Below, piece after piece: positions 1,331 through 59,853 of a stretch of DNA of 64,000 nucleotides (its first letter is position 1; each line of letters opens with the position of its first letter). This DNA comes from Patescibacteria group bacterium (GTDB lineage: Bacteria; Patescibacteriota; Patescibacteriia; UBA9934): NCBI GenBank assembly GCA_041659765.1, contig JBAZXR010000001.1, forward strand, positions 108,537 through 172,536, written 5' to 3'. The notes under the pieces are model-generated. The model saw only the letters and a program-made list of their open reading frames with translations, was not told the DNA's origin and did no database searches. The translations under genes and the position numbers were made by a program.

Positions 1331-1412
1331 GAAAACAAAAGACCACATATCGCTCGAAAATGGAGTCGGATTACCTCCTAACATTTTCTCGCGACATGTG
1401 GCTTTTGTTTTT
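1331..1412. repeat. Conserved-loop hairpin element, copy 1. An imperfect ~30-bp stem flanks the core TGGAGTCGGATTACCTCCTAACA (1361..1383), followed by a T-run
   Basis: Inverted repeat gaaaacaaaagaccacatatcgctcgaaaa / ttttctcgcgacatgtggcttttgtttt. It sits between convergent aspS and the 1464..1883 minus-strand gene. The same 21-23 nt core recurs at 14861, 14951(rc), 43636(rc), 46550(rc) and 59801. Confidence 0.85.
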
Positions 1413-1463
1413 GGGTGAAAATTAAACGCCCGAGCTAGGCTCGAGCGTGTAGGGCGAGGGGCA

Positions 1464-5492: not shown

Positions 5493-5579
5493 TGGTACCA
5501 CGGGAGGGACTCGAACCCTCAATCCCTTACGAGAAACGGATTTTGAGTCCGTCGCGTATACCATTCCGCCACCGTGGCA
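5493..5579 (-). tRNA. tRNA-Leu (anticodon CAA)
   Basis: 87 nt with a long variable arm, anticodon loop CTCAAAA and a G1-U72 wobble. Confidence 0.8.
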
Positions 5580-5642
5580 CAGATGGGGCACATGGTAGCA
5601 GAACTTAGTAAAAAGGCAAAGTATGTTAGAATATCCCCGACT

Positions 5643-6410
5643 ATGGTCCATGTAGTATCAGTTGTGAATCAAAAAGGAGGGGTAGGGAAGACCACCACGA
5701 GCATGAACTTGGCGGCTTTTTTGGCTGACTTTGGCAAACGGGTGTTATTGGTCGACCTCGACCCCCAGGGCAATGCCACGAGCGGACTCGGCTTCCAACC
5801 GTCTGAACTTTCGGGTACCTATGAGGTGCTCTCCGGCGAAAAGCAGATTCGGGATGTGATTATCCCCACTGCCCATGATCGACTATTCCTCTTGCCAGGA
5901 AATCCCGACCTCGCCGGCAGTCAGGTTGAGCTTGTGAACGAATTTAATCGCGAGCGAAAACTCCAGAATGCGATCGCGCCTCTGAAGGATGACTACGACT
6001 ACATTCTTGTGGATAACCCGCCGTCCCTCGGGCTCCTGACCATTAACGGTCTTGTGGCGAGCGATAGCGTGCTTGTTCCTGTGCAGGCGGAGTATTATGC
6101 TCTTGAAGGACTTGGCCAACTTTTACAAACCGTCGAGCTCGTAAAAACAAACATTAAGCCGGAACTTGCCGTCATGGGGGCAGTGATTACCATGTTTGAC
6201 CCGCGGACGAACCTGGCAAATCAGGTTTTGCAGGAGCTTTACAAGCATTTCCCCGGAAAGATCTTCCGCTCGGTCATTCCCCGCAGCATCAGACTCGCCG
6301 AGGCGCCAAGTTACGGTAAGTCCATCATCCACTACGATCCGCTGAGTAAAGCAGCTAAAGCGTATGAGCGATTGGCTCGTGAGTTCCTGGAACGTGAAAA
6401 AACCGACTAG
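5643..6410 (+). CDS. parA: Chromosome partitioning ATPase ParA/Soj
   Basis: Deviant Walker A KGGVGKTT. Start chosen at ATG 5643 (MVHVVSVVNQKGG...) to avoid overlap with tRNA-Leu; the track start at 5574 overlaps the tRNA. Confidence 0.85.
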   Translation: MVHVVSVVNQKGGVGKTTTSMNLAAFLADFGKRVLLVDLDPQGNATSGLGFQPSELSGTYEVLSGEKQIRDVIIPTAHDRLFLLPGNPDLAGSQVELVNEFNRERKLQNAIAPLKDDYDYILVDNPPSLGLLTINGLVASDSVLVPVQAEYYALEGLGQLLQTVELVKTNIKPELAVMGAVITMFDPRTNLANQVLQELYKHFPGKIFRSVIPRSIRLAEAPSYGKSIIHYDPLSKAAKAYERLAREFLEREKTD

Positions 6411-6447
6411 TTAGACAAAGCGGGGTTTCAAACCCCGCATTTACCAT

Positions 6448-7353
6448 ATGAACAAAGCCAAAGGAGGTTTGGGCAGGGGACTTGGATCACTACTGTCGCC
6501 AATGAGCGTCCCTGTTCAAGCACCGAGTGCTCCAGCTCCCGCCGACTTCACACCGGAACCGATCGATGTAGTGGCCGAGGGTGATTTGCGTATCAAGCAG
6601 GTTTCACCGAAGGATATCGTCGAGAATCCCCGCCAGCCACGCCGGCATTTTGCTCAAGAGGAACTCGCAGAGCTTGAAGAGAGCATTAAAGAGCACGGCA
6701 TTCTACAGCCACTCATCGTCTCTGAAATTTCCCCTGGCAAGTACGAGCTCATTGCCGGTGAACGCCGTCTGCGCGCCTCACGCGGTCTTGGACTCGATAA
6801 GATTCCAGTGGTCATCAGGCCCATGGAGGATGACCGGAAGAAGCTCGAGCTCGCCTTGATCGAAAACATTCAGCGCTCAGACTTGAACCCCGTTGAAGAA
6901 GCACAAGCGTATCGCGCTTTGATTGAGGAGTTCGATCTCCGTCAGGAAGACGTAGCTAAGCGCGTCGGCAAGAGCCGTCCGGCTGTGGCTAACGCCTTAC
7001 GATTGCTTGAGCTCGACGAAGAGATGCTTCAGGCGCTCATCGATGGTCGCATCATGAAAAGCCACGCTCGCACCCTCATGGCCGAGCCCGTTCTCAGCCG
7101 CCGCCAGGCTATTTTTCAGGACCTCTTGAAAGGCGGCGTCACCGTTCGCGAGGTGGAGGCTCGTGCCGGTTCGGCCCGTAACCGCGCCCGCTACGCCAAA
7201 GACCCCAATATCGGCGCCCTAGAAATGGAACTCCGCGAAAAGTTCGGCACAAAGGTTACTATCGACATGCAGAACAGCGGGGGCAAGATTTCTATCTATT
7301 TTTACGCGAAAGAGGATTTGAAGAGCTTAGTTGAGAGATTAGCGAAAGACTAG
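6448..7353 (+). CDS. parB: Chromosome partitioning protein ParB/Spo0J
   Basis: N-terminal GLGRGLGSLL, ParB box GERRLRAS and an HTH region. Confidence 0.85.
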   Translation: MNKAKGGLGRGLGSLLSPMSVPVQAPSAPAPADFTPEPIDVVAEGDLRIKQVSPKDIVENPRQPRRHFAQEELAELEESIKEHGILQPLIVSEISPGKYELIAGERRLRASRGLGLDKIPVVIRPMEDDRKKLELALIENIQRSDLNPVEEAQAYRALIEEFDLRQEDVAKRVGKSRPAVANALRLLELDEEMLQALIDGRIMKSHARTLMAEPVLSRRQAIFQDLLKGGVTVREVEARAGSARNRARYAKDPNIGALEMELREKFGTKVTIDMQNSGGKISIYFYAKEDLKSLVERLAKD

Positions 7354-10299: not shown

Positions 10300-12463
10300 T
10301 ATGGTTAAGAAGATGTCGAATATCGGCAGGGAACCCGTATGGCGCGGTTCCAATCGTGAGACGGAACCCGGCGAACCGGATGTATTAGAAGTGACAGAGG
10401 TGATTCATCGGCGAGATCTAAATACCTTAGCTCGGAAGCAGGAAGCTTTGGCTCGAGAGACGGATAATGAAAAAGAAACTGAACCATCCCTGGAGGGCGA
10501 GCTTTATGGACTTGAGCGTAGGGCGCGGATTTTGCAGGCTCACCGGCATGAACCAGCTGATTACGCTCATTTGCGGGAGCAGAAGAAGGCGCTGGCCAAG
10601 CGGATCAAGGGAGATAAAAAGTTAGAAGAACGACTTAGCCGAATCACGTTTAGCGAGATTGTTGGACAAGGCGAGCCGGTCGTGGGGCAAGATGTTGAAC
10701 GGCCTAGATCTAAGGAACTTGAACAGGCCGATTCGGCATATCGGGCCAAGCTAGATTATCTGGCTAACATGCTGGTTACCGTTGATCAGCTGCTTAATGC
10801 CGATGCTCCATCAAAAACAAAAATAAAAAAGATGCTGGATGGCGTGGTGAATGCGCTCGGCGGCGCTCATTTGACGTACGCGGCTGAGACGGAACGGGCG
10901 TTAACGAAGTCTTTGATTGAGCGGGCTGACATGCTGGCTAGAAAAATTATTCTTGATCAGCACCGGTTAGAAAATATTTTGGAAGTTGCACCAGCGCGGG
11001 AGACTAAGCTAAGAAAGCTTCCACGAAAAACGCGCCAAGGAAACCGAAAGAGGATATTGCCGGGGATGGTGCCAGAGCATTTACTTCGTACTGGCGTGAC
11101 ACTTCCGGAGAAACCAGACATCGCCCAGATCGTTCTTCCGTCTGAGGAGAGGCTAGGGAAGAAAACAGAGGGTTTTGGTGAGCGGTTGCGCCATGGTTTT
11201 GCATATTTATGGAATCGTGGGAAGCGTGAGGGCGCGGAGAAGGCTGAACTCAAGGAGATTGAGACATTCGGTGAAACCGCTAAGATGACTGCGGCCCTCG
11301 CGAGGACTGCGGTGACGTTTGGCGGTGCATATTTGGATCCGGAGCTCGTGAAACACATGCCCGCGTCTTTGTTGTCCAAAAAAGAAACTGAGCAGTTGGA
11401 ACTGATGCTGCGGGCTGTTGCGGAAGGTGGAACGAAGAGTCCGGATGAACAGGGGTATGACTCGTATAAGGAAGGAGTTCGCAGACTAGCAGAGCGCGTC
11501 AGTGCGTCGCGTTATGGTACGCCCAAAGAGAAGGGAAAAATTCTGGGGGACATCATGCGGGCAACCATTACTCCGCAGGATGATCGTACGCGTGCGGAGC
11601 GTGAACAACTCAAGGTTTCTGCTGAGCTTTTGACTAAGCCACGCGAGGAAATGACGAGCAATACGACACTTATTTTGGGTGAGCATTTGCTCCGCGCGCC
11701 AGCATATGACGGTGAGGCACTTATCGCTCGATTTAAAACTGTTGCGAGAGATGGTGCGACGGACGCAACGGCTCGCGAGCGCATTAGGAAATTCATCGCA
11801 GATCAGTTTGCGGAAACTGCTAAGACGTGGAACGGAGGCAGTACGAGACAGAAGGCATACGCAGGTCTGAAGACCATTGGGAAAGCGCTCGGTGCTGCTG
11901 GTTTTGCATATGCTACCCGCGAATTATGGGAAGTAATGCCGACGGTGGACACCTTAACGCAGGACGAGCTTCGCGTGCGGATTGACGACGCGCTTGAGGC
12001 TTCTGAAGCTCGCGATGACGTTCACGTGCTGCAGGAGCTTTCCGCTCATGAGGCGCTGTGGTCTGGTGCAGAAACGCTTGGCGAGCACGGGACCGTGAGC
12101 GTTCCCTTGGCTGAAGCGGAAATATCTGAATATTCTGCGGGGCAACTGGCGGCGGGCACGGTTAGGAAGGGCGATGGTATAACGCAGGCTTTGATCCGTG
12201 TGATTGCCGAGAACCCAAAACAGTTTGGCTATGTACACGACCAGTTGGCGTTTGATCTTAATGCCAGAAAACTCGCTCTTACGATGGTGAAGAATGACGG
12301 GCTCTTACGTACATGGCTGAATGATCAAGCCGTAGGGAATTTGCTAGTACTTCCGGTGATGAGATCGGACGGTTGGCATGTGGAGTTTTTAGACGCCAAG
12401 ACGCACGAGGAAATTTCTGGTAAAGCCTTGAAGGCATTTACAAAAGCACAACCGAGGCCTTAA
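10271..12463 (+). CDS. Large hypothetical protein (~720-730 aa, charged, predicted helical/coiled-coil)
   Basis: Long ORF with no recognisable catalytic motif. An alternative start at ATG 10301 lies 2 nt after the upstream stop. Confidence 0.5.
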   Translation: MMLLRELLNSMVKKMSNIGREPVWRGSNRETEPGEPDVLEVTEVIHRRDLNTLARKQEALARETDNEKETEPSLEGELYGLERRARILQAHRHEPADYAHLREQKKALAKRIKGDKKLEERLSRITFSEIVGQGEPVVGQDVERPRSKELEQADSAYRAKLDYLANMLVTVDQLLNADAPSKTKIKKMLDGVVNALGGAHLTYAAETERALTKSLIERADMLARKIILDQHRLENILEVAPARETKLRKLPRKTRQGNRKRILPGMVPEHLLRTGVTLPEKPDIAQIVLPSEERLGKKTEGFGERLRHGFAYLWNRGKREGAEKAELKEIETFGETAKMTAALARTAVTFGGAYLDPELVKHMPASLLSKKETEQLELMLRAVAEGGTKSPDEQGYDSYKEGVRRLAERVSASRYGTPKEKGKILGDIMRATITPQDDRTRAEREQLKVSAELLTKPREEMTSNTTLILGEHLLRAPAYDGEALIARFKTVARDGATDATARERIRKFIADQFAETAKTWNGGSTRQKAYAGLKTIGKALGAAGFAYATRELWEVMPTVDTLTQDELRVRIDDALEASEARDDVHVLQELSAHEALWSGAETLGEHGTVSVPLAEAEISEYSAGQLAAGTVRKGDGITQALIRVIAENPKQFGYVHDQLAFDLNARKLALTMVKNDGLLRTWLNDQAVGNLLVLPVMRSDGWHVEFLDAKTHEEISGKALKAFTKAQPRP

Positions 12464-12465
12464 GC
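12441..12465. terminator. Perfect 10-bp-stem hairpin (caaccgaggc cttaa gcctcggttg) spanning the overlapping stop codons of two convergent genes
   Basis: The TTAA centre holds the TAA stops of both the 10271..12463 ORF and topA. Confidence 0.5.
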
Positions 12466-14736
12466 CTCGGTTGTTTCTTTGGGTTTGCGGGTAAATTTGC
12501 GTTTGGGCGCTTTACGCTTTTTGATCAGCATTTCAATGGCCATTTCGCGGGTGACTGTGGCGGGGTCAACATCTTTTTTGATTGTGACGTTTGTCTTGCC
12601 GTCAGTTACGTAGGGACCGAAGCGACCATCTTTTACAAGTATTTTTCCCTTCGTTTCCGGGTCTTCGCCAAGGTCAGCGAGAGGCGTCATCTGTTTGATT
12701 TTTTTCTCGACGCCGGTCGTGCAAAGTTCTATAGCCTGCTCAAGGGTGATCGTTTTCGGATCCGTCCCTTCCGGCATGGAGATGTTCATTTCGCCGCACT
12801 TTAGATAGGGGCCAAAACGTCCGGTGTTCGCTACAATCTCATAGCCGTTTGGATGTGCGCCGAGCGTGCGGGGGAGGACAAGAAGGTGCAGCGCATCAGC
12901 AAGAGTGATAGTTTCCAGTGCTTGATGTTTTTCAAGCGAGGCGCGTTTGGGTTTGATTTCATCCGTCACTGGTCCTAACTGGACGAAGGGACCGAAACGG
13001 CCGTTTCTGGCAATAACTTCCAGCCCTGTTTTGGGATCAATACCGAGTGAACGTTCTTTCATGACATCTGAGCGGGAGAGATCCTTGGTCTTTTCCTCGA
13101 TGCGTTCGTGAAAGGGCGTGTAGAAATCGCCGATGGCTTTAACCCATGACTCCTGGCCGTCAGCGATATCGTCGAATTGCTTTTCCATCTTGGCGGTGAA
13201 TTCCAGGTCGACAATTTGTGGGAAGTGTTCGACGAGAAGGTCGATAACTATCATGGCGATGTCTGACGGGAATAATTTTTTATTGTCGTCGCGCAGGACG
13301 TACTCGCGCGCCTCGATAGTCGAAAGAGTCGGCGCGTAGGTTGAAGGCCGACCAATTCCGTGTTCCTCGAGTGCCTTAATAAGGGTGGCGTCTGAATATC
13401 TGGCCGGTGGTTCAGTGAAATGCTGTTCTGGTTTTATTTCTTTTGCTTGGCCAATGTCATCGCCCTTCATCATGCTTGGCAAGAGTTTATCTTCAGAGGC
13501 CTGCCAAACTTTCATGTAGCCGTCAAAAACAACCGTTGAGCCAGTGGTGCGGAAGGTGTGGCTATTGCCTTCAAGGTCAATAGCTGTACGACGAATTTTG
13601 GCAGCTGGCATCTGAGAAGCGAGCGTACGACGCCAAATGAGGTCGTAAAGTTTAGCCATGCCGGGATCCAGCGTCGCCTTGGCGTCATCAGGGGAGGCGT
13701 CAGCGTTTGTAGGCCTGATAGCTTCGTGGGCTTCCTGAGCGCCCTTCTTAGACGTGTGGTACGCTACGGAACCCTTGGCGTACTCTGTGCCGAATGACTT
13801 TTTAATGTACGCCTGTGCACCATCTAGGAACTGCGTGCTCAGGTTCAATGAGTCTGTACGCATGTAGGTGATGAAACCAGTTTCATACAGCTTTTGGGCG
13901 AGCGTCATGGTCTGCTTGGCACTCATTCCGAGTCGGTTGTACGCTTCCTGTTGGAGCGTCGAGGTCGTGAGCGGAGTAGGCGGTTTCTTGCTTGCATCTT
14001 TTTCTTCAACCGAAATAATCGAAAAGTTTGCATCTTTTACCGCGTCAACAATTGCTTGCGCATCCTTCTCATTTTTAATGTCGAGTTTATCGAGTTTCTT
14101 GTCTCCGATAGCATGAAGCTTGGCAGGGAATTCGGTGCCAGCTTTTTCGAACAGCCCTTCAATAGACCAGTACTCGTCTTGTTTAAAGGCGAGGCGCTCG
14201 CGTTCACGTTCAACCACTAGCCGAACAGCGACGGATTGTACGCGACCAGCGGAGAGGCCTCGGCGCACTTTTTTCCACAGGAGGGGAGACAACTCGTAGC
14301 CTACTAGACGATCCAAAATGCGGCGCGCCTGCTGGGCGTCCACTAGGTTCATATCCAGTGTGCGGGAGGTTTTGAGGGCGTGTTCAATAGCGCTCTTGGT
14401 GATTTCATGGAACGTAATGCGCTTCGCGGTCTTTTCATCTAGATCCAATACTTCAGCAATGTGCCAGGCAATAGCTTCCCCTTCGCGGTCTTCGTCGGTT
14501 GCGAGGTAGACCTCTGTGGCTTTTTTGGCTGCATCCTTGAGCGCCTTCACCTTATCTTTTTTATCATCAGGGACGATGTAGGTAGGCGCAAAATCATGTT
14601 CAATATCAACCCCCATTTTCCGTTCTGGGAGGTCACGGATGTGCCCGTAGGAGGAAATAACCGTGTAACTTGAGCCAAGAAACTTGTTAATGGTTTTGGC
14701 TTTGGTGGGTGACTCTACAATAAGGAGTGGCGGCAT
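12460..14736 (-). CDS. topA: DNA topoisomerase I
   Basis: TOPRIM N-terminus (LIVESPTKAKTI), an active-site Tyr region and C-terminal zinc-ribbon/repeat domains. Length is 758 aa. Confidence 0.9.
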   Translation of the reverse strand: MPPLLIVESPTKAKTINKFLGSSYTVISSYGHIRDLPERKMGVDIEHDFAPTYIVPDDKKDKVKALKDAAKKATEVYLATDEDREGEAIAWHIAEVLDLDEKTAKRITFHEITKSAIEHALKTSRTLDMNLVDAQQARRILDRLVGYELSPLLWKKVRRGLSAGRVQSVAVRLVVERERERLAFKQDEYWSIEGLFEKAGTEFPAKLHAIGDKKLDKLDIKNEKDAQAIVDAVKDANFSIISVEEKDASKKPPTPLTTSTLQQEAYNRLGMSAKQTMTLAQKLYETGFITYMRTDSLNLSTQFLDGAQAYIKKSFGTEYAKGSVAYHTSKKGAQEAHEAIRPTNADASPDDAKATLDPGMAKLYDLIWRRTLASQMPAAKIRRTAIDLEGNSHTFRTTGSTVVFDGYMKVWQASEDKLLPSMMKGDDIGQAKEIKPEQHFTEPPARYSDATLIKALEEHGIGRPSTYAPTLSTIEAREYVLRDDNKKLFPSDIAMIVIDLLVEHFPQIVDLEFTAKMEKQFDDIADGQESWVKAIGDFYTPFHERIEEKTKDLSRSDVMKERSLGIDPKTGLEVIARNGRFGPFVQLGPVTDEIKPKRASLEKHQALETITLADALHLLVLPRTLGAHPNGYEIVANTGRFGPYLKCGEMNISMPEGTDPKTITLEQAIELCTTGVEKKIKQMTPLADLGEDPETKGKILVKDGRFGPYVTDGKTNVTIKKDVDPATVTREMAIEMLIKKRKAPKRKFTRKPKETTEA

Positions 14737-14805
14737 AGAAGCAAAATTGATAGCCCGAATGATACCTCATCGTCAAGCTGTGGTCGGGGGATCCGCACAT
14801 TCCCT

Positions 14806-14836
14806 CCCGAAATTTGAGTCGGGTTACCTTTTTCGG
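14806..14836. repeat. Truncated or degenerate copy of the conserved-loop hairpin element (ccgaaa / tttcgg stem, loop TTTGAGTCGGGTTACCTT)
   Basis: Contains GAGTCGGGTTACC, matching the element core, within a 6-bp stem. It abuts copy 2. Confidence 0.5.
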
Positions 14837-14910
14837 CGGTGCACCCGTTTCCGTAAAAATTGGAGTCGGATTACCTCCTAACAATTTTTCCGGAAACGGG
14901 TGCACCGCCG
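14834..14910. repeat. Conserved-loop hairpin element, copy 2 (perfect 20-bp stem cggcggtgcacccgtttccg; core 14861..14883)
   Basis: Perfect inverted repeat around TGGAGTCGGATTACCTCCTAACA. It lies in the intergenic region between topA and dprA. Confidence 0.85.
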
Positions 14911-14929
14911 AATGGGATCCTAAGCCGAA

Positions 14930-14992
14930 GGGTGATATCCAAAATAAAATGTTAGGAGGTAACCCGACTCCATTTTATTTTGGATATCACCC
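14930..14992. repeat. Conserved-loop hairpin element, copy 3, core in opposite orientation (GTTAGGAGGTAACCCGACTCC, one substitution)
   Basis: Perfect 21-bp stem gggtgatatccaaaataaaat / attttattttggatatcaccc, immediately downstream of the dprA stop. Confidence 0.85.
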
Positions 14993-15001
14993 GCAGGCGA
15001 A

Positions 15002-16102
15002 TTACACGCGCTCATATCGTGTACCCCCGAGACTGCGCACAACACCCATGAGCTCGAGTTCGAGGAGCGCGCGCGACATGTCAGAAGCTGTCGAGCCTGT
15101 TTTGAGACATAGTTCATCGGCAAAGAGCGAGCTATGTTCGAGATAAGCGCAAATACTCCTATGAAAGGGAATAAGTTCAGGTAGAGGTTTCTTGAGTGCG
15201 ACGGGCTGTGGCGCAGGCGCGCCATCTGTTTTTCGCGGCGTAGCTATTCCAAAGGCTAAGAGGAGATCGTCGGGGCTCGTAGCTACGAACGCTCCATCTT
15301 TGATGAGATTGTTTGTTCCGGCCGAGGTGAGGGAATCAATCGGCCCCGGTACTGCAAAAACTTCTCGTCCAGCGTTAATCGCTGCGTGAGCGGTGAGGAG
15401 CGAACCAGACGGAAGACCGGCTTCCACAACGAGCGTGATTCTGCTCATGCCCGCAATAATTCTATTCCGCATGGGAAAGTGAAACCTGAGGAATGGCGAG
15501 TGAAGACCGTACTCCGTGACGAGCGTGCCTCCAGTTTCGATAATTTTTTCGGCGATATTTTCCTTGTCCATGCTGTTATGTGCGAGGAGCCCGCCGCCGA
15601 GGACGGCCGTAGTATGTCCTTTTGCTTCGATTGCACCCTTATGTGCAATGGTGTCAATTCCTAGCGCTAGCCCAGAGACAATCGACACACCGTGTGCGGC
15701 CAGTCCGTACGCAAAAGTTCTGGCGGTTTTCTTTCCGTATTCGCTGAGATTTCTGGAGCCGACAATAGAGACGCATTGTTCTCTCATTAACTCGCCCTGT
15801 ATAAACAGTGCGAACGGTGGGTCATAGATCGTTTTGAGAAGTGCAGGATATTCGGTATCATCTTTGGTGATGAGTCTGATACCGTGTTGTTCCATGCTTT
15901 TGACGTATACGTCGGGGCGGGCGGCTTGGCGGAACGTAAAAAATCCCGCCAGACGGGATTCGGGGATGCCGAGCTCAAGAAATTCGTGTTCGGGCGCTGC
16001 CCAGATAGCTTGCGCTGTCCCAAATTTGGCGAAGAGTTTTTCAAGTGTTCGCGAGCCAAAGACCGGACAGTTGGCGAGAGCGACCAGAAACGGATCCGTC
16101 AT
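15002..16102 (-). CDS. dprA: DNA processing protein DprA (Smf)
   Basis: Rossmann-like DprA core (GLALGIDTIAHKGA, VVEAGLPSGSLLTA) with a C-terminal winged-helix domain. Confidence 0.85.
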   Translation of the reverse strand: MTDPFLVALANCPVFGSRTLEKLFAKFGTAQAIWAAPEHEFLELGIPESRLAGFFTFRQAARPDVYVKSMEQHGIRLITKDDTEYPALLKTIYDPPFALFIQGELMREQCVSIVGSRNLSEYGKKTARTFAYGLAAHGVSIVSGLALGIDTIAHKGAIEAKGHTTAVLGGGLLAHNSMDKENIAEKIIETGGTLVTEYGLHSPFLRFHFPMRNRIIAGMSRITLVVEAGLPSGSLLTAHAAINAGREVFAVPGPIDSLTSAGTNNLIKDGAFVATSPDDLLLAFGIATPRKTDGAPAPQPVALKKPLPELIPFHRSICAYLEHSSLFADELCLKTGSTASDMSRALLELELMGVVRSLGGTRYERV

Positions 16103-23719: not shown

Positions 23720-23746
23720 TTCGTGGTAAAATGTGTGGGAGTTATG

Positions 23747-25471
23747 CTAAGCCGTTGGGCTCAGAATACGTTTGCAGTAATCCTTGTTATGGCAGGGGGC
23801 TTTTTATTTTCTGCGCCACAGGTTTTCGCTCAAGCTGATCAAACGGCTCAGGTGGCTGCTACGGCCGGGTTTGGGACAGCTGATCTACCGACTATTATTG
23901 GCCAGATCATCAGTGTTTTTCTGGGACTACTTGGCGTAGTTTTTCTGGTCCTGACTATTTACGCCGGCACCATGTGGATGACGGCCGCCGGTGATCCTAA
24001 GAAAGTTGAGAAGGCTAAGAATATTTTGATTCAGGCGGCCGTTGGGTTATTAATTACGATCAGTGCTTACGGAATCACCACCTTTATAGTCAATGCGATT
24101 ACGGGCGGAACTGGCGGCGGTGGGGGCGGGACAGGCGGTGGAAGTAATGGCGGAGTCTCGGTCGAGAGCCTGTCTGGTGCTTTGGGCGCCGGACCAATTC
24201 GCGACCATTACCCAACCAGAAATCAGACTGATGTGGCCCGGAACGCTAAAATAATGATTACGTTTAAGGAGGCCATTGACCCGGCCTCGGTGACGGTTAA
24301 TTCCGTGAAGATTTTCCCTGCCTCCACGGGTGTTACTGGTGCGCTCACGGACACGGTTATTAACTTTACAGACGATCACAAGACTTTTGTCTTTAGGCCG
24401 GCCGCCTATTTGGGCTCGCCGACCGCTAAGGTCCAGTACACCGTCCAATTAACTACTGACATTAAAAATGCCGGTGGTGCCAAGCTGTTCTCCGGCTCAT
24501 ACAGCAGTGGGTATAAGTGGTCATTTGAAACTGGCACGGTGCTTGATCTGACGCCGCCGACAATTGTGTCCGTTACTCCTGCTAACTCTGGCGCCTATGC
24601 TCGGAACATCGTAGTGCAGGCTACTTTTTCCGAACCGGTTGACCCAACTTCTGCTTCGGGCGTCCGAACATCTTCCGGAGGTTTCTCGAACATTGGGATT
24701 ACAAGTAATGCGACTGTGCAGGTGCCTGGCGAATATCAGATTTCCAATGGCTATACTTCTGTAACCTTCATCTCGGCTGAGCCTTGTGGCACTAACTCTT
24801 GCGGAGAAAAGATTGTCTGCTTGCCGGCTAGCAGCAGTTTGAATGTCACCGTTAAGGGTGCAAGTACTACGGCTAATCCTCCGCAGGCAGATACCTTTCC
24901 GTATGACGGTGTGGTAGACATGGCCGGTAATTCTTTTGATGGCAACCACGACGGCACGGCTGGAGACTTTTTTGGCTGGAGTTTTACGACCACCGGGGAT
25001 ATCGCGCTCGCGGGGCCAAAGATTGTGTCTGTTTCGCCGAATATTTCCGAAGAAGATGTGCCGCTTGATCAGCCGGTCACGATTACGTTTGGCGATGTCC
25101 TGATGACCTCTAGCGTTTCTCAAGACACAGTCCAGTTATCTAATAAAGAACAGGTGTCTGGCATTTCTCATGAAATGTGGTTTTCGCCGAGCACCTCCTA
25201 TTTGACGAGCGATGATCAGGTGGTGACTTCGGCTGCTCAGATTCCGGCCAAGACGGTGGTTGAAGTGACTCACGGAACGTTCTTGCAGTCGGTGGACGGC
25301 AAGTCATATTTGTATGGCTCGACAGTCACGAGTGGTTTGTTGAACCAGTATCAAAATTGTTATGTGCCCGGAGCGGGACCTGATGCGGTTGGCGGATTGT
25401 GCGGTGTGTCGGCCGCAGAGCCGTACTGCTGCAACGGTATCCCATCTTCCTCGGCTTGCATCCTCTTCTAA
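23747..25471 (+). CDS. Secreted surface protein with a TrbC/VirB2-like two-helix N-terminal anchor, Gly-rich linker and Ig-like (Big) domains
   Basis: Signal peptide, then two hydrophobic helices separated by GDPKKVEKAKN (VirB2/TrbC pilin-like), a G-rich stretch and beta-rich repeats. A TGnTAAAAT -10 precedes it and its stop abuts the giant gene. The track start at 23723 is possible. Confidence 0.65.
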   Translation, partial: LSRWAQNTFAVILVMAGGFLFSAPQVFAQADQTAQVAATAGFGTADLPTIIGQIISVFLGLLGVVFLVLTIYAGTMWMTAAGDPKKVEKAKNILIQAAVGLLITISAYGITTFIVNAITGGTGGGGGGTGGGSNGGVSVESLSGALGAGPIRDHYPTRNQTDVARNAKIMITFKEAIDPASVTVNSVKIFPASTGVTGALTDTVINFTDDHKTFVFRPAAYLGSPTAKVQYTVQLTTDIKNAGGAKLFSGSYSSGYKWSFETGTVLDLTPPTIVSVTPANSGAYARNIVVQATFSEPVDPTSASGVRTSSGGFSNIGITSNATVQVPGEYQISNGYTSVTFISAEPCGTNSCGEKIVCLPASSSLNVTVKGASTTANPPQADTFPYDGVVDMAGNSFDGNHDGTAGDFFGWSFTTTGDIALAGPKIVSVSPNISEEDVPLDQPVTITFGDVLMTSSVSQDTVQLSNKEQVSGISHEMWFSPSTSYLTSDDQVVTSAAQIPAKTVVEVTHGTFLQSVDGKSYLYGSTVTSGLLNQYQNCYVPGAGPDAVGGLCGVSAAEPYCCNGIPSSSACILF

Positions 25472-34400: not shown

Positions 34401-35020
34401 ACAAAACGGGACCAACTGGTTGTACATCTAGTCCTTGTCAGTCAACAAATATCCATGGGACGAGAACTTATGAAGGTTTGGTTGAAGCTCGTCAGATGTT
34501 TAAGAAGATTAATGATTTGTCGACCACGGATAAGACTAATACCCGGTACATCGGGATCCTGCTATCTGATGGCGAGTATACGAACACAGACCCGCTCATT
34601 GAAGCAGCTGCATGGAAGGATAAATACGAGCTTTATACGGCCACAATCGGCAATGATTCGGCGTTCATTGCGCAGATGAACAGGTGGTCGACGAATAGTT
34701 GGGATGGAACTACGGCCAACACGAGTTCTGACACGTACAATGGCGTTGATTATTCCTTTACGGCATCAACGGATACGCAATTAACGGGCATTTATAGCCA
34801 GATAGTTAATACGATCCAAAATATTAGCGTTAAACTGGTTGTTGATAGTGGAGCTGCCTCGACTAGCGTGAATACTGGAAACGGAATCTCGCTCGTTTTG
34901 CCGCAAGGCTTTGCCTGCGACAAGCTTCACTCACAGAACGTGCCTATTCAGGTGACCTTTGCAGGCAAGGGGCAAATGACTATTAGTGACGTGCGTGTAA
35001 ATTATTGTGCGGCTCCATAG
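25478..35020 (+). CDS. Giant (3180 aa) VirB2/TrbC-anchored surface protein with Ig-like/IPT domains, Myxococcus-type cysteine-rich repeats (DUF4215-like) and a vWA domain with MIDAS
   Basis: GTG start 7 nt after the upstream stop. Its N-terminus is paralogous to the 23747 gene. It has IPT/Big-like segments, a (TTPGG)n linker, about six CG(D/N)GxxDxxEECDDGNxxxGDGCSxxC repeats (aa ~1330-1530) plus a second array (aa ~2340-2660), and DxSxS (ITDLSQTM) of a vWA/MIDAS at aa ~2830. Confidence 0.75.
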
Positions 35021-43565: not shown

Positions 43566-43567
43566 GA

Positions 43568-43600
43568 AAGTCGCTTCCTTTACGGAGGCGATTTTCATTT
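43568..43600 (+). terminator. Terminator hairpin after tRNA-Asp (tcgcttcc tttac ggaggcga + T-run)
   Basis: 8-bp stem with one mismatch, followed by TTTT. Confidence 0.4.
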
Positions 43601-43609
43601 TCTTCAAAA

Positions 43610-43682
43610 GCAGATGAATATCCTGTTGAGAAAATGTTAGGAGGTAATCCGACTCCATTTTCGAGACAGGAGATTCATCTGC
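43610..43682. repeat. Conserved-loop hairpin element, copy 4 (core GTTAGGAGGTAATCCGACTCC at 43636..43656)
   Basis: Stem gcagatgaatatcctg / acaggagattcatctgc, between tRNA-Asp and the convergent 43736..45175 gene. Confidence 0.85.
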
Positions 43683-43735
43683 TTAAAAAAAGAAGTCGGA
43701 GATCCGCGTGGGGATCTCCGACCGTTACGTTCTGG

Positions 43736-46472: not shown

Positions 46473-46530
46473 GGCCGTGGGGTTAATTGGTCGAAAGTAT
46501 AGGTAAGGAATGTGTTTTTGTCGAGCTGGA

Positions 46531-46589
46531 GGATATGTTCGAAAAATTTGTTAGGAGGTAATCCGACTCCAAATTTTTTGGACATATCC
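46531..46589. repeat. Conserved-loop hairpin element, copy 5 (core 46550..46570, rc orientation)
   Basis: Stem ggatatgttcgaaaaatttg / caaattttttggacatatcc, located between ssrA and infC. Confidence 0.85.
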
Positions 46590-46603
46590 GTAAGCTCTAA
46601 CAA

Positions 46604-50758: not shown

Positions 50759-50994
50759 TCCCCAGCCTCTCTTGCGGGTTTTTTGCATCCCTGTTAATTT
50801 TCTGCGGACATGCCCCTTTTGAGGGCCCGATGGAACGGTCGTGACGCCTCCTCCTCGTCGCGATTTGTGACCGTTGGGCCTTCAAAGGGGGTATTGTAAT
50901 TTTGGCTAACAATAGCCTATAAAATCGTTTTCGGGATCCGGTTTCCGGTTTCATGGATCCGGAGTCCCGGACATCGGACACCGGACGCAAATAC

Positions 50995-51023
50995 TTGACA
51001 AAAGCCTGTTTTTTTGCTATTAT
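50995..51023 (+). promoter_or_regulatory. Promoter P3 (TTGACA - AAAGCCTGTTTTTTTGC - TATTAT)
   Basis: Copy of the shared promoter. It is preceded by CGGACA-type direct repeats (50967..50988). Confidence 0.65.
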
Positions 51024-51220
51024 AGGTTGTTCTTTCAAACGAAAGAATTGGCTAACAAAACCTCCAGAATCGTCGCTCCGACGGCTTGGTATCCTTTGGC
51101 GTTCCTCCTCCAAACGCTAAGGTTGATGCCAGGTCATTGGAGCGCCGATTGCAGGCGCCGGTAAACTGACGTGTTGTCAGAACCGTCTTGCAGCGGACTC
51201 AAAAATCCCTTGGAGGGTAC

Positions 51221-52381
51221 ATGTTGACCATGATCCTGTGCGTCTTGACGAATTTTGCTCTGGCGACCGGCCCTGCGCCGACGCCTCCGGCCGCCACCGA
51301 GCCGGCCCCTGCGGTTTTGGTCGAGCCCCCGGATGAAAAGCCGGAGTGCAAGATCCAGGACGCCTGCACGGAGGCCGAACTGGCCGCGATGAAGCTGTGG
51401 ATGGCGGACATGGATGCCTGGCGCGCCCGTATGGGCAAGCCGAGCGCCACGACCGTCGAATTCCGCAAGAAGGTGGCGTGGTTGTGCGCTCAGCACAACG
51501 ACTGCCTCGACCCTGTCGCGGCAGCCCCGGCAGTCACGCGGCCGCCGGTGGTCACGCCCGTGGAGCCGCCCAAGAAGACCCCCCTCGAACAGCTCAAGGG
51601 GATCGTGACCGGTACGCCGAAGCCCGACGAGGGCGGAACGCGGCCGAGCCCGGACATGCCGACGACCATCGATCCGACGCCGACGATGCCGAGCGCAACT
51701 GCGACGGGTGGCCAGGCCACCGCCACGAACATCGTGGAAACGGTGGAACCAGCCACGACGGTCGAGCCCGGTCCGTCGAGCGCCTCCATCACCCGCACGG
51801 TGACGGAAGCGGACGGCCCCCGGCTCGGTCCCATCGCTGGGATCGAGTTCGTGCGCCAGGCTGAGATCCGCGGCGTGACCGCTCCGAGCATGCTCACTGA
51901 GCTGATCGGTGCGTCCCTCCGTCTGGGTGACAGCCATGGTCCGTTCGTGTCCGGTCGAGGCGCAGGCTTCGTCGGTTCGGAAGGGGCGCAGGGCGCGCTC
52001 GGTGGTCTGACCATCGGTGCCGGCCTGGACGGCCTGCTGGAATTCGGGGTTCTCTCCGAGTTCTACGTGTACGAGGTGCGCGGTGCTGGCGAACGGAGCA
52101 ATCCGTACGTCCAGGCCAAGTACTCCGGCCTCCGTAACGGCTTGAGCCTCTCGCTCTCGCCGGGTTCGGAAGACCGCGTCCTCCTCACCGCCAGTGGCTC
52201 CGTCGACCTGTTCCATGGTCGGGTGGAGACCAAGGACGGCCGGTGGGCGGACCTGTCGCCCACGCTCGGCCTCAGCCTCACCTGGTTCCCGAAGATCAGC
52301 GATCGGACGGAAACGGTGACGGTCACCGGTATGGCTTCGGACTCGAAGCCGCCCCGTGGTCAGGAAGTCCCGCTGCACTAG
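51221..52381 (+). CDS. Secreted Pro/Thr-rich protein with C-terminal beta-rich domain (high-GC island gene 1)
   Basis: Signal peptide (MLTMILCVLTNFALA), PAPTPP linkers, a Cys pair and a Gly/Ser-rich alternating C-terminus. SD GGAGGG precedes it. The coding sequence is much more G+C rich than its neighbours. Confidence 0.6.
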   Translation: MLTMILCVLTNFALATGPAPTPPAATEPAPAVLVEPPDEKPECKIQDACTEAELAAMKLWMADMDAWRARMGKPSATTVEFRKKVAWLCAQHNDCLDPVAAAPAVTRPPVVTPVEPPKKTPLEQLKGIVTGTPKPDEGGTRPSPDMPTTIDPTPTMPSATATGGQATATNIVETVEPATTVEPGPSSASITRTVTEADGPRLGPIAGIEFVRQAEIRGVTAPSMLTELIGASLRLGDSHGPFVSGRGAGFVGSEGAQGALGGLTIGAGLDGLLEFGVLSEFYVYEVRGAGERSNPYVQAKYSGLRNGLSLSLSPGSEDRVLLTASGSVDLFHGRVETKDGRWADLSPTLGLSLTWFPKISDRTETVTVTGMASDSKPPRGQEVPLH

Positions 52382-52401
52382 CGGGCAATCGAATGGGCGG
52401 C

Positions 52402-52438
52402 GGCTCTGGTGAAGGATCGAATCCTTGTCACCAGAGCC
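52402..52438 (+). terminator. Long GC-rich hairpin (ggctctggtga...tcaccagagcc) after island gene 1
   Basis: ~16-bp stem. No T-run follows, which is typical of high-GC donor-type terminators. Confidence 0.4.
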
Positions 52439-52459
52439 GTCGCACCTCTCTTTCAATGA

Positions 52460-52488
52460 TTGACAAAAGTCTAAAAATCTGCTATAGT
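52460..52488 (+). promoter_or_regulatory. Promoter P4 (TTGACA - AAAGTCTAAAAATCTGC - TATAGT)
   Basis: Shared promoter consensus inside the high-GC island, followed by a ~180-nt structured 5' UTR. Confidence 0.65.
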
Positions 52489-52671
52489 AGTTCGTTACAG
52501 AATTAGTGAAATCCCGTGATGTTAGCGCATGAAGTTCATGCCCTGACATCGCCGGATTTCTCTCACGGCGATAAGCGAGTAATCGCGAATTGCTTGTGAG
52601 AGAGTGTTCCGGAGTGTTCCTTTCCTGCTAGACAAACAACCCGGGCCATCGTGCCCTATACGAGGTGACTA

Positions 52672-54225
52672 ATGTCACGCTTTGCAACGATTGCTGTTCT
52701 GTTCTTGGGTGCGTGCGGTGGGCAGTTCGCCCCCGACGAAATCGAGACCGGCGGCAACGACACCGGTTCCAACGCTGACGCCGACACCGACGCCGACTCG
52801 GACTCCGATACGGACTCCGATACGGACGCCGACGCCGACGTCGACACGGGCACCAACGAGGTCCCGTTCTACGACATCGACGGCGACGGGCGCGAGGACA
52901 AGCCGGCCACGGACGGCCTCATCCCGGTTGGGATGAACGTCTCGATCGCCGAGTTCAACACGCCGCCCGCGTTCCTGGACGAGTTGTACTTCGTTCCGTA
53001 CGGCGAGAACTGCAGCACCAGCTACAAGCTGTGGCGCGTCACGACCGTCGACGGCGCGGGCTACTTCGCCTGGACGCTCCGGAGCAATACCGGAACGATC
53101 GCAGGGAACGTCCGCAAGGTCACCTGGAACGAAGACGGCAGCTGCTACCTGGACGACGGATCGCTCGACTTCTGGGGCAACCTGGAAGCGGACAACATGG
53201 TCGGTGATCCGGCCATCGTTCCGAGCCTCGTGGACACCTACGAGGACGAGCAGACCCACGAGGTCAAGCACCGCATGATGGTGTGCCTCGAAGTCCGCGG
53301 CATGAGCACGATCCCGGGCAACCCGCTCGCCTGCCAGCAGATGCAGCAGGACGCTGGGCCGGTCGTGGATCCGGTCGAGACCATCTGGTACCGCGACTTC
53401 GACAACGACGGGTACGGCGATGCGGGAACCACCAAGTGGTCCGTGGCGCAGCCGGCAGAATACATCGGAGTCCCCGGCGATTGCTGGGATGACAACGACG
53501 AGGTTCACCCCGGTGCGACCGAAGTGGTCGATGGCCTCGACAACGACTGCGACGTGGTCAAGGACTGCGCCGACGCGAACGTGTCGAAGGTCTCGGAGAT
53601 CACGGGCGACGGCTACGACAACGACTGCAACACGTCGACGTCGGACACCGTTCCCTCGGCTACCCCGACCGACTGGTACCTGGACTCGGACGGCGACGGC
53701 TTCGGCAGCGCAGTCTCGAAGCTCTCGGCCGTGGCGCAGCCTGCGGGCTACGTCAGCAACGGCACCGACTGCGACGATGCGAAGAGGGACCGCTTCCCCG
53801 GCGCGACCGAGATCGCGGGCGACGGCATCGACCAGGACTGCAACGGCAGCGACCTGGCGACGGTACCTTCGGGTGACGGCCGCACGCTCGGCACGTGGAC
53901 CTTCACGTTGGATTCCAACGTGTCGGCGAGCGTGACCCAGTTCGAGATCCGGAACACGACCGCGAGCACCGTGGTCAGCCAGCTCAGCCGGAGCGGCAAC
54001 GTCTTCACCGTGCAGATCATGGGGAAGACGGGGGACGATCTGTCCGCGCAGTGCTGGTACACGAAGCCGGACGGGGTCACCGAGTGGTGCGCAAGCAACA
54101 ACCACTCGGGCAAGATCCTCTCGGCCACCGGTCCCGGCGGCGCGTACACGGTCGGTCAGCTCACGGGCGACTTCAAGTACGCCTCCGTGGACTCCGGTAA
54201 GCGGTACAACGGCAAGGTCAAGTAA
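52672..54225 (+). CDS. Lipoprotein with poly-Asp/Thr/Ser acidic linker and MopE-like putative metal-binding repeats (high-GC island gene 2)
   Basis: Lipobox LFLGAC, a (DxDx)n acidic tract, and repeats DNDGYGDAG...PGDCWDDNDEVHPGATEVVDGLDNDCD and DSDGDGFG...GTDCDDAKRDRFPGATEIAGDGIDQDCNG. Confidence 0.65.
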   Translation: MSRFATIAVLFLGACGGQFAPDEIETGGNDTGSNADADTDADSDSDTDSDTDADADVDTGTNEVPFYDIDGDGREDKPATDGLIPVGMNVSIAEFNTPPAFLDELYFVPYGENCSTSYKLWRVTTVDGAGYFAWTLRSNTGTIAGNVRKVTWNEDGSCYLDDGSLDFWGNLEADNMVGDPAIVPSLVDTYEDEQTHEVKHRMMVCLEVRGMSTIPGNPLACQQMQQDAGPVVDPVETIWYRDFDNDGYGDAGTTKWSVAQPAEYIGVPGDCWDDNDEVHPGATEVVDGLDNDCDVVKDCADANVSKVSEITGDGYDNDCNTSTSDTVPSATPTDWYLDSDGDGFGSAVSKLSAVAQPAGYVSNGTDCDDAKRDRFPGATEIAGDGIDQDCNGSDLATVPSGDGRTLGTWTFTLDSNVSASVTQFEIRNTTASTVVSQLSRSGNVFTVQIMGKTGDDLSAQCWYTKPDGVTEWCASNNHSGKILSATGPGGAYTVGQLTGDFKYASVDSGKRYNGKVK

Positions 54226-54250
54226 GCTAGGCATTCGGCCTGGCACGTAA

Positions 54251-54300: not shown

Positions 54301-54314
54301 AGGGGTTGTCAGGC

Positions 54315-54343: not shown

Positions 54344-54384
54344 TCTCGGTCCGTTCGGATAGCATCCGTCGGCAAGGAGGACTC

Positions 54385-54921
54385 ATGAATCGCATTCTGT
54401 TCTTGGCCGTTCTGGCCTTCACCGCGCTCACTGGTTGCCAGATGCATCCGGATGCGCCCAATGGGAACCAGTCCGGCGGCGGCAACAACGATCAAGGCGA
54501 CGACATCATCCAGCAGGAGCCTGCGCTCGTCGAGATCATCGCCACGCAGGAGGACATCGACGGCACGAACGTCAGCCTCTACGCGAAGGGCGAGGGCAAC
54601 GACAACGTCAACTGGATCGCGAACCCGAACGCCGTCCCGATCGACACGGACTCGGACGGCCGCGGCGAGATCGGCAACTGGACCCAGTTCGAGGTGGCCT
54701 GCGGGGAGGAAATCACCCTCCAGTGCAACTTCCGCGACCGACAGGGTCGCGAGCGTTGGTGCTTCGAGAACGACCCGGACGACGGCGGGACCAACCAGTT
54801 CCTCGCGGACGACGTTTGGGTGGACGGCGTGGTGTCCAGGCTCCGGCCCGTCTTCAACGAGTGGACCGGCGCCAACGACTCCCACGGCTACAACGCCGTC
54901 ATCACCCGGAACTGCCGGTAG
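54385..54921 (+). CDS. Small Cys-containing lipoprotein (high-GC island gene 3)
   Basis: Lipobox LTGC, a Gly/Asn-rich linker and SD AAGGAGG. Confidence 0.6.
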   Translation: MNRILFLAVLAFTALTGCQMHPDAPNGNQSGGGNNDQGDDIIQQEPALVEIIATQEDIDGTNVSLYAKGEGNDNVNWIANPNAVPIDTDSDGRGEIGNWTQFEVACGEEITLQCNFRDRQGRERWCFENDPDDGGTNQFLADDVWVDGVVSRLRPVFNEWTGANDSHGYNAVITRNCR

Positions 54922-55090
54922 ATCGTCACGTTCGGCTCGTCCCCTGGGGCGCTGTGCAGCAATGCATGGCGCTCTTTTTTATTGGGCGTGGCGAGCCACG
55001 CCCTTACAGCGAACTTGCTATGTACAGCTCGGCTTGCCCGTTTAGCTCGTTCTGCTACCCTCAACAGAGATATCTTAGAGGAGGCTTTTT

Positions 55091-55621
55091 ATGACTACAC
55101 GCTTGATTGCAGGGATTATTACTAGCGCGGTGCTTTTGACGGCGGGTTGGGGATGTGCAAAGACCACCCCCTCTATCCCCCTGGAAGGGGGAAGCGGCGA
55201 ACCCGAGGTGAAGGGCGTAGTCGACGAGTTGCCCGACGGAAAGGGGCCGGCGCCTTTTGAACTGTGCATCAGTACTGATGGCCCGGTTACCGGCGCGGTT
55301 TGGTTGTACGCCGCAAACAATACGGCGCCTCGTCTTAACTGGACGCAGTGGTTTTCTGCAGACCCAGTTGCGGCTGGGGATGCCGGCCAAGAAATTTGCG
55401 GAGCCCTTAATTTCTCCATTGAATCTGGCGATACCCTTTATTTGAACGGCACCTGGTCCAAAGGCAAGAACTTCCTAGTTAACAATCGCGGCGAGCAGGG
55501 CACACCAAGCGATCAGATCAAAGAAATTTGGCTTGATGATCAATTCTACGAGATTGGTAGGGATTGCGCTTACGAGAATAATAATATGGGAGGATATAAC
55601 CTAGCCTGCACGGTTCGGTAA
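55091..55621 (+). CDS. Small Cys-containing lipoprotein, distant paralogue of 54385..54921 but with host-like GC
   Basis: Lipobox TAGWGC, shared NWTQ(W)F and C-terminal Cys patterns, and SD GAGGAGG. Confidence 0.55.
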   Translation: MTTRLIAGIITSAVLLTAGWGCAKTTPSIPLEGGSGEPEVKGVVDELPDGKGPAPFELCISTDGPVTGAVWLYAANNTAPRLNWTQWFSADPVAAGDAGQEICGALNFSIESGDTLYLNGTWSKGKNFLVNNRGEQGTPSDQIKEIWLDDQFYEIGRDCAYENNNMGGYNLACTVR

Positions 55622-59771: not shown

Positions 59772-59853
59772 GCAAAACAAAATAGCACTCTCTCTCGGAA
59801 ATGGAGTCGGATTACCTCCTAACATTTCCTCGAAAGAGTGCTTTTTGTTTTGC
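59772..59853. repeat. Conserved-loop hairpin element, copy 6 (core 59802..59823)
   Basis: Stem agcaaaacaaaatagcactc / gagtgctttttgttttgct. It exactly fills the gap between the rplL stop and the stop of the convergent 59854 gene. Confidence 0.85.

Follow-up and report, generated by a model that had tools for sequence, protein, structure and literature searches.

The 265-bp spacer between dprA and topA (14737..15001, minus strand) contains members of a repeat family in which a 21-nt hairpin tip is conserved and the arms vary freely as long as they remain complementary. The spacer lies in the window, the 64,000-nt stretch of contig JBAZXR010000001.1 (assembly GCA_041659765.1, Patescibacteria group bacterium) that was analyzed here. 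The members are palindromes with covarying arms and a tip under purifying selection. They are gained and lost at orthologous sites; one is nested in another without target-site duplication, and one hairpin has been duplicated as a whole. We hold with moderate confidence that the spacer harbors lineage-restricted extragenic DNA palindromes, similar to repetitive extragenic palindromic (REP) sequences and miniature inverted-repeat transposable elements (MITEs), in which the whole hairpin is duplicated, inserted, and lost as a unit.

Two Inverted Hairpins in the dprA-topA Spacer

The spacer was delimited with the list of open reading frames (ORFs), Pfam matches, and the sequence, and is transcribed in the direction from dprA to topA. 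Both genes are on the minus strand: topA (12460..14736) shows the Pfam domains Toprim and Topoisom_bac and the C-terminal repeat domains, and dprA (15002..16102) shows DNA_processg_A. The RNA fold of the spacer is at -125.6 kcal/mol (z = -10.3 against shuffled sequences). A preliminary description had reported three copies of one hairpin element here. Repeated hairpin elements are indeed present, as two strong hairpins in opposite orientation plus a partial copy. What is repeated among them is the tip with short A/T-rich inner arms, not the arms themselves. The earlier reading overlooked that the loop is the conserved part and that the arms are hypervariable.

Hairpin 3 (14930..14992, minus strand; 75.1 bits with the covariance model) is the first element past the dprA stop codon. 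In the repeat search, its arms (14930-14951 and 14971-14992) are 22 nt long and 100% complementary, with 19 nt between them. Its tip, GGAGTCGGGTTACCTCCTAAC, is at 14951-14971 on the minus strand, which is the "+" orientation relative to transcription. Hairpin 2 (14832..14912, plus strand; 88.1 bits) has arms of 31 nt (14832-14862 and 14882-14912), 97% complementary with one T.C mismatch, and these are also separated by 19 nt in the repeat search. Its tip, GGAGTCGGATTACCTCCTAAC, is at 14862-14882 on the plus strand, and a dprA-topA transcript would carry it as GUUAGGAGGUAAUCCGACUCC. The centers of the two hairpins are inverted copies of each other, and their arm sequences have nothing in common. 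The common center is GGAGTCGG(A/G)TTACCTCCTAAC with a few flanking A/T pairs. As DNA, each hairpin folds equally stably on either strand. The repeat search detected a third, partial center at 14810-14829, which is 90% identical to 14857-14876.

Both hairpins lie between dprA and a promoter-like block for topA (14737..14777, minus strand), which reads CTTGACG-ATGAGGTATCATTCGGG-CTATCAAT-TTTGCTTCT-ATG. The arrangement CTTGACG-17-CTATCAAT is directly 5' of the topA ATG and is kept in all eight relatives compared. The topA leader is only a few nt long and has no Shine-Dalgarno (SD) sequence. From its conservation, we infer that this block acts as the topA promoter; a strict consensus promoter scan did not call it. 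In the window and in seven relatives (L006-L008, L010, L016, L017, and L022), the block upstream of topA is CTTGACGATGA[G/T]GTATCATTCG[G/A]GCTATCAAT. It includes a near-palindrome, CGATGA..TCATTCG, between the putative -35 and -10 elements, which may be an operator.

A Conserved Tip and Variable Arms

Family members are 60-95 bp long. The tip, GGAGTCGGRTTACCTCCTAAC, is almost invariant across the family. Its boxes GTCGG and CCTCCYAA are invariant, and the variation is found at positions 2-3 and in the four bases between the boxes (RKTA). Covariation between positions 1 and 21 (G:C, T:A, and C:G) indicates that they pair. In the first spacer hairpin of L007 (1215-1246) and L016 (11132-11161), 2-4 apical bases are replaced with unrelated 13-nt inserts that could form a mini-hairpin; the boxes are intact.

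The total arm length is 20-30 bp per copy. The outer arms, 12-22 bp, are different in every copy and complementary. The inner arms, 5-9 bp, are A/T-rich and show compensated variants: AAAAT/ATTTT, GAAAT/ATTTC, AAATTT/AAATTT, and GGCT/AGCC. Many copies have a pyrimidine-pyrimidine mismatch 7-8 bp from the center. Two subfamilies are distinguished by the inner arm. Subfamily 1 has CTCGRAAAT...ATTTYCTCR, often with the outer ends AAAACAAAA/TTTTGTTTT, and subfamily 2 has CGTAAAAATT...AATTTTTCCG. The copies with the T1/A21 variant of the tip constitute a third group.

Pairs were counted in an ungapped 69-column alignment of 19 copies. Changes on both sides were observed for 24 of the 25 arm pairs. 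The proportion of paired arm cells was 86.5%, compared with 54% in shuffles and 33-48% when the partners were slid. G.U accounts for only ~1% of arm cells, and one-sided changes were found in only 5 cells. Such covariation with almost no G.U indicates that the arms are true Watson-Crick DNA palindromes, not G.U-tolerant RNA helices. The comparison between L017 and L022 showed seven arm differences, all seven compensated, and both hairpins are perfect. No intermediates were seen in the arms, suggesting arm-to-arm correction by template switching.

Among six orthologous first hairpins of the spacer, the mean pairwise identity is 0.33 for the outer arm, 0.84 for the inner arm, and 0.97 for the two tip boxes. 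The difference between boxes and outer arms indicates purifying selection on the tip, with arms that are free while complementary.

The two strands are not equivalent in their imperfections. On the strand with TTAGGAGG..CCGAC, the non-Watson-Crick cells include 40 purine-purine cells (including G.A) and 18 G.T cells, versus 6 and 4 on the other strand. The TTAGGAGG..CCGAC strand folds more stably in 20 of 21 copies. This asymmetry is a lead, not a proof, as it is mostly due to two mismatches inherited within subfamilies and the counts are not independent.

Nested Insertion

The preliminary description placed a truncated copy at 14806..14836. A partial copy does exist there, but it is larger and split. 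Sequence reading, repeat search, and comparison with relatives revealed a plus-strand remnant of an older copy of the T1 variant at 14787..14829. It consists of the surviving arm, GGGGATCCGCACATTCCCTCCCGAAATT (14787-14814), and the first 15 nt of the tip, TGAGTCGGGTTACCT (14815-14829). The last 6 nt of the interrupted old tip, CCTAAG, can be read at 14919..14924 on the plus strand. When 14815-14829 is joined to 14919-14924, the 21-nt tip is complete, with no base duplicated or missing. The 89 nt between the tip halves (14830-14918) correspond to hairpin 2 plus TT and TGGGAT, that is, 8 extra bases.

On the minus strand of the window, the order is ...CTTAGG / ATCCCA-(hairpin 2)-AA / AGGTAACCCGACTCA-AATTTCGGGAGGGAATGTGCGGATCCCC-CGACCACAG-CTTGACG, where CTTAGG and AGGTAACCCGACTCA together make the full T-variant tip. 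The partner arm of the remnant is absent. Its ortholog in L010, L017, and L022 is the second element there, which has AGGTAACCCGACTCAAATTTC and the downstream CGACCACAG in common with the remnant. The position of hairpin 2 between exact tip halves is the clearest sign of whole-hairpin insertion without target-site duplication. As read from these junctions, hairpin 2 was inserted precisely within the tip of an older copy already present, and the other arm of that copy was lost later.

Gain and Loss at Orthologous Sites

The spacer was compared in eight relatives that keep the gene order pth-dprA-topA. L008, whose DprA is 84% identical to that of the window, has no copy, and L006 (78%) has one copy, the ortholog of hairpin 2. 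Two copies (+,-) are observed in L007 (73%), L010 (65%), L016 (61%), L017 (60%), and L022 (57%). The contig of P0011 (47%) has a 36-bp spacer with no room for a copy. Orthologs of hairpin 2 with related arms are found in L006 and L007. The spacer length is between 36 and 354 bp among relatives, with insertions and deletions of whole hairpins. The differing copy numbers in orthologous spacers, together with the nested arrangement in the window, bear out the earlier suggestion of an insertion hotspot. A conserved protein gene at this position in relatives had been named beforehand as the finding that would refute the hairpin reading, and no such gene was found in their orthologous spacers. In L022, the dprA call stops early (328 aa), and the winged-helix coding runs on in another frame to the usual stop (10940-11105). 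This is apparently a frameshift or an assembly error.

Presence or absence of the whole unit is seen at three orthologous sites: dprA-topA, rplL, and hflX. The convergent gap between rplL and an ORF of 699 aa contains an element in the window and in L019. The two have homologous outer arms and A/T-tracts, and extend from stop codon to stop codon. In the window, this copy (copy 6; 59779..59847, plus strand) fills an 82-bp gap, with A- and T-tracts on both sides. The same gap contains plain bidirectional terminators in L021, L018, and L020, with the 4-nt loops TTCG, GAAA, and TTTA, respectively; the product of the 699-aa ORF is 88%, 85%, and 65% identical to that of the window in these relatives. 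The terminators of L018 and L020 have a common GCGCAG stem. The plain terminators in relatives indicate that the element-bearing hairpin replaced a terminator as a unit.

Two other origins of the hairpins were considered and set aside. One is the insertion of just the 31-41-nt inner module into terminator loops, which is suggested by CTCG...CTCG around the inner module of subfamily 1. It is disfavored because the ancestral GCGCAG stem is not kept at the rplL site and because L003 and L004 have the whole hairpin in common. As a target-site duplication, CTCG...CTCG is ambiguous. The other is the generation of the palindrome by inverted duplication of flanks over the gene ends, suggested at rplL because the palindrome there extends to both stop codons; it was rejected since both genes end with AAGTAA in the element-free relatives.

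L003 and L004 are two loci on one contig of a metagenome-assembled genome (MAG). They have a whole hairpin of ~77 nt (GGGAC...GTCCC), ~94% identical, in unrelated flanks. There is no target-site duplication in these flanks.

At the third site, an extra element is present between hflX and a pilin-like (T4SS_pilin/Big_5) gene in L017 (2395-2463) and L022 (2382-2450). In the window, hflX and the pilin-like gene are 3 nt apart (23719/23723), with no element between them. The pilin-like ORF of the window (23723-25471) adjoins a giant ORF of 3180 aa (25478-35020), and relatives have T4SS_pilin/Big_5 domains there.

Copies in the Window and Distribution of the Family

The exact 21-mer tip occurs six times in the window (1362+, 14862+, 14951-, 43636-, 46550-, and 59803+) and never in 100 shuffles. 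Besides hairpins 2 and 3 and the rplL copy, these correspond to three copies elsewhere. Copy 1 (1338..1406, plus strand), 8 nt past a class-II aminoacyl-tRNA synthetase gene, is located at the tip of a hairpin that resembles a terminator, AAAACAAAAG...CTTTTGTTTT. An EamA-like ORF converges on this site and has its own plain terminator (1448..1426). Copy 4 (43612..43680, minus strand) is between two canonical intrinsic terminators, one past a tRNA (43566-43596, plus strand) and the other past an ORF of 479 aa (43723..43694, minus strand). It is thus enclosed in a transcriptional dead zone. Copy 5 (46526..46594, minus strand) is between the 3' end of the tmRNA (46633) and a promoter-like site of infC (46524..46496).

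The covariance model built from the copies (69 positions) detected 25 elements in 270 kb, comprising the window and about ten related Patescibacteria contigs. This is about one per 11 kb, with 6 in the window, and no further divergent copies were found in these 270 kb. The search of 185,579 species genomes of GTDB with the exact or degenerate tip returned only 5 true matches, all from one MAG that bears a Gammaproteobacteria label but is syntenic with, and assigned here to, the same lineage. JGI metagenomes yielded no true copy of the tip, but 4 chance matches without stems. There was no tip match in IMG/VR, and no match to the family among phage and plasmid records with BLAST. Rfam 15 showed no match at the elements at gathering thresholds. 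At E<=10, the hairpin overlaps only microRNA-precursor models far below threshold, generic noise for long hairpins, and two weaker matches are outside the hairpins. In the literature, no description of the sequence, of extragenic palindromes in the Candidate Phyla Radiation (CPR), or of conserved-loop palindromes was found. The scarcity of matches in public collections indicates that the family is narrowly distributed in what could be searched.

GCA_964348985.1 (L001-L005 and L010; contigs CAYGEQ0100000xx), which is titled "uncultured Gammaproteobacteria", has the same repeat family. It is syntenic with the window and 72-83% identical in nucleotide sequence in aligned segments. Judging from these sequences, its Gammaproteobacteria label looks wrong.

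Genomic Context and Terminator Features

All of the 11 independent sites are intergenic. Five are convergent, five are codirectional, none is divergent, and one has uncertain ORF calls (L005). At well-defined gene ends, the start of the hairpin is 2-19 nt past the stop codon; past the tRNA and the tmRNA, it is ~40-50 nt from the RNA 3' end. At codirectional sites, the first hairpin past the stop codon is "+" at four and "-" at two. In the window, three copies are plus and three are minus relative to GC skew. Such mixed orientation with respect to both transcription and GC skew fits a DNA element.

A G+C-rich stem followed by a U-tract at the gene 3' end is found for window copies 1, 4, and 6, and for L001 and L019. 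Going by sequence features, some members have everything expected of an intrinsic bidirectional terminator, and one replaces such a terminator. Members without a U-tract, including the three in the spacer, may be only structural blocks or insulators, or may have no action. The preliminary description had proposed a compound terminator or insulator in front of topA. The position between the dprA stop codon and the topA promoter-like block agrees with this proposal, but the spacer copies do not have the U-tract of a terminator.

Comparison with Known Systems

The family resembles REP sequences and bacterial interspersed mosaic elements (BIMEs) in several respects. These are also short extragenic palindromes, roughly one per 10 kb, located between cistrons or at the 3' ends of genes. 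Clusters of alternating orientation occur, as in the +,- pair in the spacer of the window, L007, L010, L016, L017, and L022. They are lineage-specific, vary in presence and absence, and are candidate RNA-stabilizing or terminating hairpins. However, REPs conserve the stem and a 5' GTAG with a free loop, whereas the loop is conserved here, the stems are free, and GTAG is absent. With 20-30 bp, the arms are longer than in REPs, the host belongs to Patescibacteria, and no REP-associated tyrosine transposase (RAYT) was found among the ~48 window ORFs scanned.

MITEs such as the Correia elements of Neisseria, RUP, and ERIC are likewise non-coding, polymorphic by insertion and deletion of the whole unit, able to make long hairpins when transcribed, and tolerated in intergenic DNA. 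Subfamily 1 adds similar outer ends, AAAACAAAA...TTTTGTTTT. Unlike MITEs, which keep terminal inverted repeats, the family has hypervariable outer arms, and only subfamily 1 has common A/T-tract ends. MITEs generate target-site duplications, whereas the sole nested insertion here shows none. No parent insertion sequence was found, and with 60-95 bp the element would be among the smaller MITEs.

Integron attC sites are similar in being recognized via structure rather than arm sequence, in their strand-asymmetric imperfections, and in an apex that can hold extra structure. In attC, however, the conserved R and L boxes are at the stem base and the tip varies, whereas this family conserves the tip. 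The AAC of tip positions 19-21 is variable, with C, A, or G at position 21. Neither cassette arrays nor IntI were found in the scans of the window, and the copies are dispersed at gene ends. Subfamily-1 copies look like bidirectional intrinsic terminators (A-tract, stem, T-tract), and one stands in place of a plain terminator of relatives. They differ from ordinary terminators in having the same tip at unrelated genes and in both orientations, and many copies, including those of the spacer, are without a U-tract. TIGR-Tas arrays were considered since they are present in CPR, and were rejected. Their loops hold variable spacers and short box C/D motifs, and the arrays are beside Tas genes. In comparison with TIGR and CRISPR arrays, the copies here are dispersed, and what varies in them is a pair of self-complementary arms rather than a spacer. 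The Pfam scans of window ORFs revealed neither Nop nor Cas domains.

Thus, the family works like REP/BIME and hairpin-forming MITEs, and it departs from what defines both, as the loop is conserved and not the stems or terminal repeats. It represents a novel family of repeats rather than a novel type of system; the likely biology, an extragenic palindrome at gene 3' ends, is familiar. Unusual features are the reversed pattern of conservation and the CPR host.

The genomes of CPR bacteria are small and contain few repeats, and no paper on a family of extragenic palindromic repeats in them was found. If the interpretation is correct, the family would be a CPR counterpart of REP/BIME elements. It would also be a natural case of compensated arm evolution around a frozen loop, useful for weighing quasipalindrome correction against selection. 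The 21-nt tip would serve as a handle to fish for a hairpin-binding protein or a mobilizing enzyme in organisms that are not culturable on their own. For annotation, it would account for spurious ORFs and for spacers of variable length beside core genes such as topA, rplL, and infC. The family alone does not open a long-standing question.

Possible Mechanism and Alternatives

In the favored explanation, copies would settle directly past stop codons or RNA genes, between neighboring transcription units, where they would stand in for an intrinsic terminator or be harmless. The tip is probably the binding site of a putative factor, as suggested by its sequence conservation, because a tip frozen in orthologous copies requires a sequence-specific reader. 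Free orientation and DNA-type palindromic arms favor recognition on folded DNA or by a mobilizing enzyme. The reader could be a trans-acting protein that sees the tip on a folded single strand or a cruciform. The arms would be kept complementary by intra-palindrome template switching (quasipalindrome correction), by selection, or by both. When transcribed, the two inverted hairpins of the spacer would terminate or obstruct transcripts of dprA and shield the topA promoter.

Several observations weigh against this explanation. There is just one clearly recent duplication (L003/L004) and one nested insertion, and relatedness among the contigs is judged only by the identity of single proteins. Pfam scans of the ~48 window ORFs revealed no transposase, recombinase, or RAYT-like gene. 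The U-tract is absent in the three spacer copies, copy 5, L003-L005, and most subfamily-2 copies, and copy 4, between its two ordinary terminators, is dispensable for termination. For purely selfish copies, a tip so strongly conserved among orthologs is unexpected, and it implies a function at each locus. A more specific scenario is a "mobile terminator" restricted to a Patescibacteria clade, in which whole hairpins would be copied or moved as folded single strands by a putative structure-specific enzyme reading the 21-nt tip. In this scenario, the tip might also mimic the SD/anti-SD helix, in a lineage that has abandoned SD-led initiation. We regard this scenario as doubtful.

Another possibility is a purely host-encoded cis-element without mobility, a specialized 3'-end hairpin whose tip is bound by a host factor for termination, RNA stability, or processing, with old duplications kept by selection. 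Near-randomized arms around tip boxes that are 97% identical in orthologs fit this possibility, as do the constant position just past stop codons or RNA genes and ahead of the next promoter, and the substitution for a plain terminator at the rplL site. The T1/A21 variants are kept in orthologs while G1/C21 copies exist in the same MAG, which argues against homogenization. Even so, this possibility appears unlikely. One RNA-binding protein would meet different sequences at codirectional sites, where the tip is in both orientations, and almost no G.U pairs are present. The patchiness in close relatives, the nested insertion, the near-identical duplicate with unrelated flanks, and the copy between two ordinary terminators also argue against it. 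Somewhat less likely still is a site of single-strand recombination or transposition in the style of attC, REP/RAYT, or the ends of IS200/IS605, with one specific strand, folded into a DNA hairpin, as the substrate of an HUH or tyrosine enzyme that would read the tip; effects on the host would be incidental. Conserved structure with free arm sequence, the nested insertion without target duplication, the excess of non-Watson-Crick cells on the TTAGGAGG..CCGAC strand, and the more stable fold of that strand are all consistent with it. However, that asymmetry rests largely on the two subfamily-inherited mismatches, and orientation in the window shows no bias relative to GC skew. Among the ~48 window ORFs scanned, there is no integrase, HUH, or Y1 gene; cassette arrays are absent, and no conserved flanking tetranucleotide could be established.

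An orientation-specific regulatory RNA is improbable, whether a riboswitch-like terminator, a small RNA, or a decoy for the ribosome or the anti-SD. The tip, ACCUCCU / AGGAGGU as RNA, includes a very strong SD-like string, while SD sequences are not enriched at the genes of this genome, and terminators with conserved tips are known regulators (PMC8632094). However, there is no Rfam match above noise, both orientations occur at codirectional sites, the neighboring genes are unrelated, and the arms resemble DNA palindromes. No sequence of 9 nt or more that is complementary to the tip exists elsewhere in the window. The idea of a guide and its targets was rejected because the rest of the window has no tip match of at least 9 nt. 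The DNA form of the string, ACCTCCT / AGGAGGT, resembles the generic 16S 3' tail, GGATCACCTCCT. Of the 54 predicted starts in the window, which include those of topA (14736) and infC (46472), only 10 have SD-like 4-mers on the 5' side, which is about chance level. A decoy for SD or ribosomes was rejected, as genes are without SD enrichment and there is no depletion of GGAGG. A subgroup of Parcubacteria is reported to have lost the anti-SD motif of its 16S rRNA (PMC9297842). Readings of the tip as a K-turn or a CsrA site were considered, and no defining feature of either could be shown. A cruciform sensor of supercoiling specific to topA, in which long perfect palindromes centered on A/T-rich sequence would be extruded under high negative supercoiling to modulate topA transcription, is very improbable. 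Six of the eight relatives keep a pair of palindromes with 28-31-bp arms on the upstream side of the topA promoter block, at a distance of 9-60 bp, and a cruciform would show both tip strands regardless of orientation. Yet the same elements are at unrelated loci (rplL, tmRNA/infC, tRNA, and hflX), and L008 and the relative with the 36-bp spacer do without them. An unpaired center of 19 nt also disfavors cruciform extrusion. Finally, it is scarcely conceivable that the overlapping ORFs 14684..14881, 14687..14905, 14814..15146, and 14920..15225 encode real small proteins, although they are open frames of 65-110 codons. None has a Pfam match at E<=1, the frames cross the palindromes and are antisense to dprA and topA, and the whole-hairpin insertions and deletions behind the 36-354 bp range leave no conserved frame. 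Their earlier dismissal as artefacts is thus upheld.

Other Features of the Window

The region 50000-56000 has a G+C content of 0.57-0.63, compared with about 0.51 elsewhere in the window. The ORFs 51134..52549, 52675..54246, 54435..55094, and 55091..55621 in this region have no Pfam match. The region may be a horizontally acquired island. The genes parA and parB are at 5574-7353, and GC skew is positive over the entire window.

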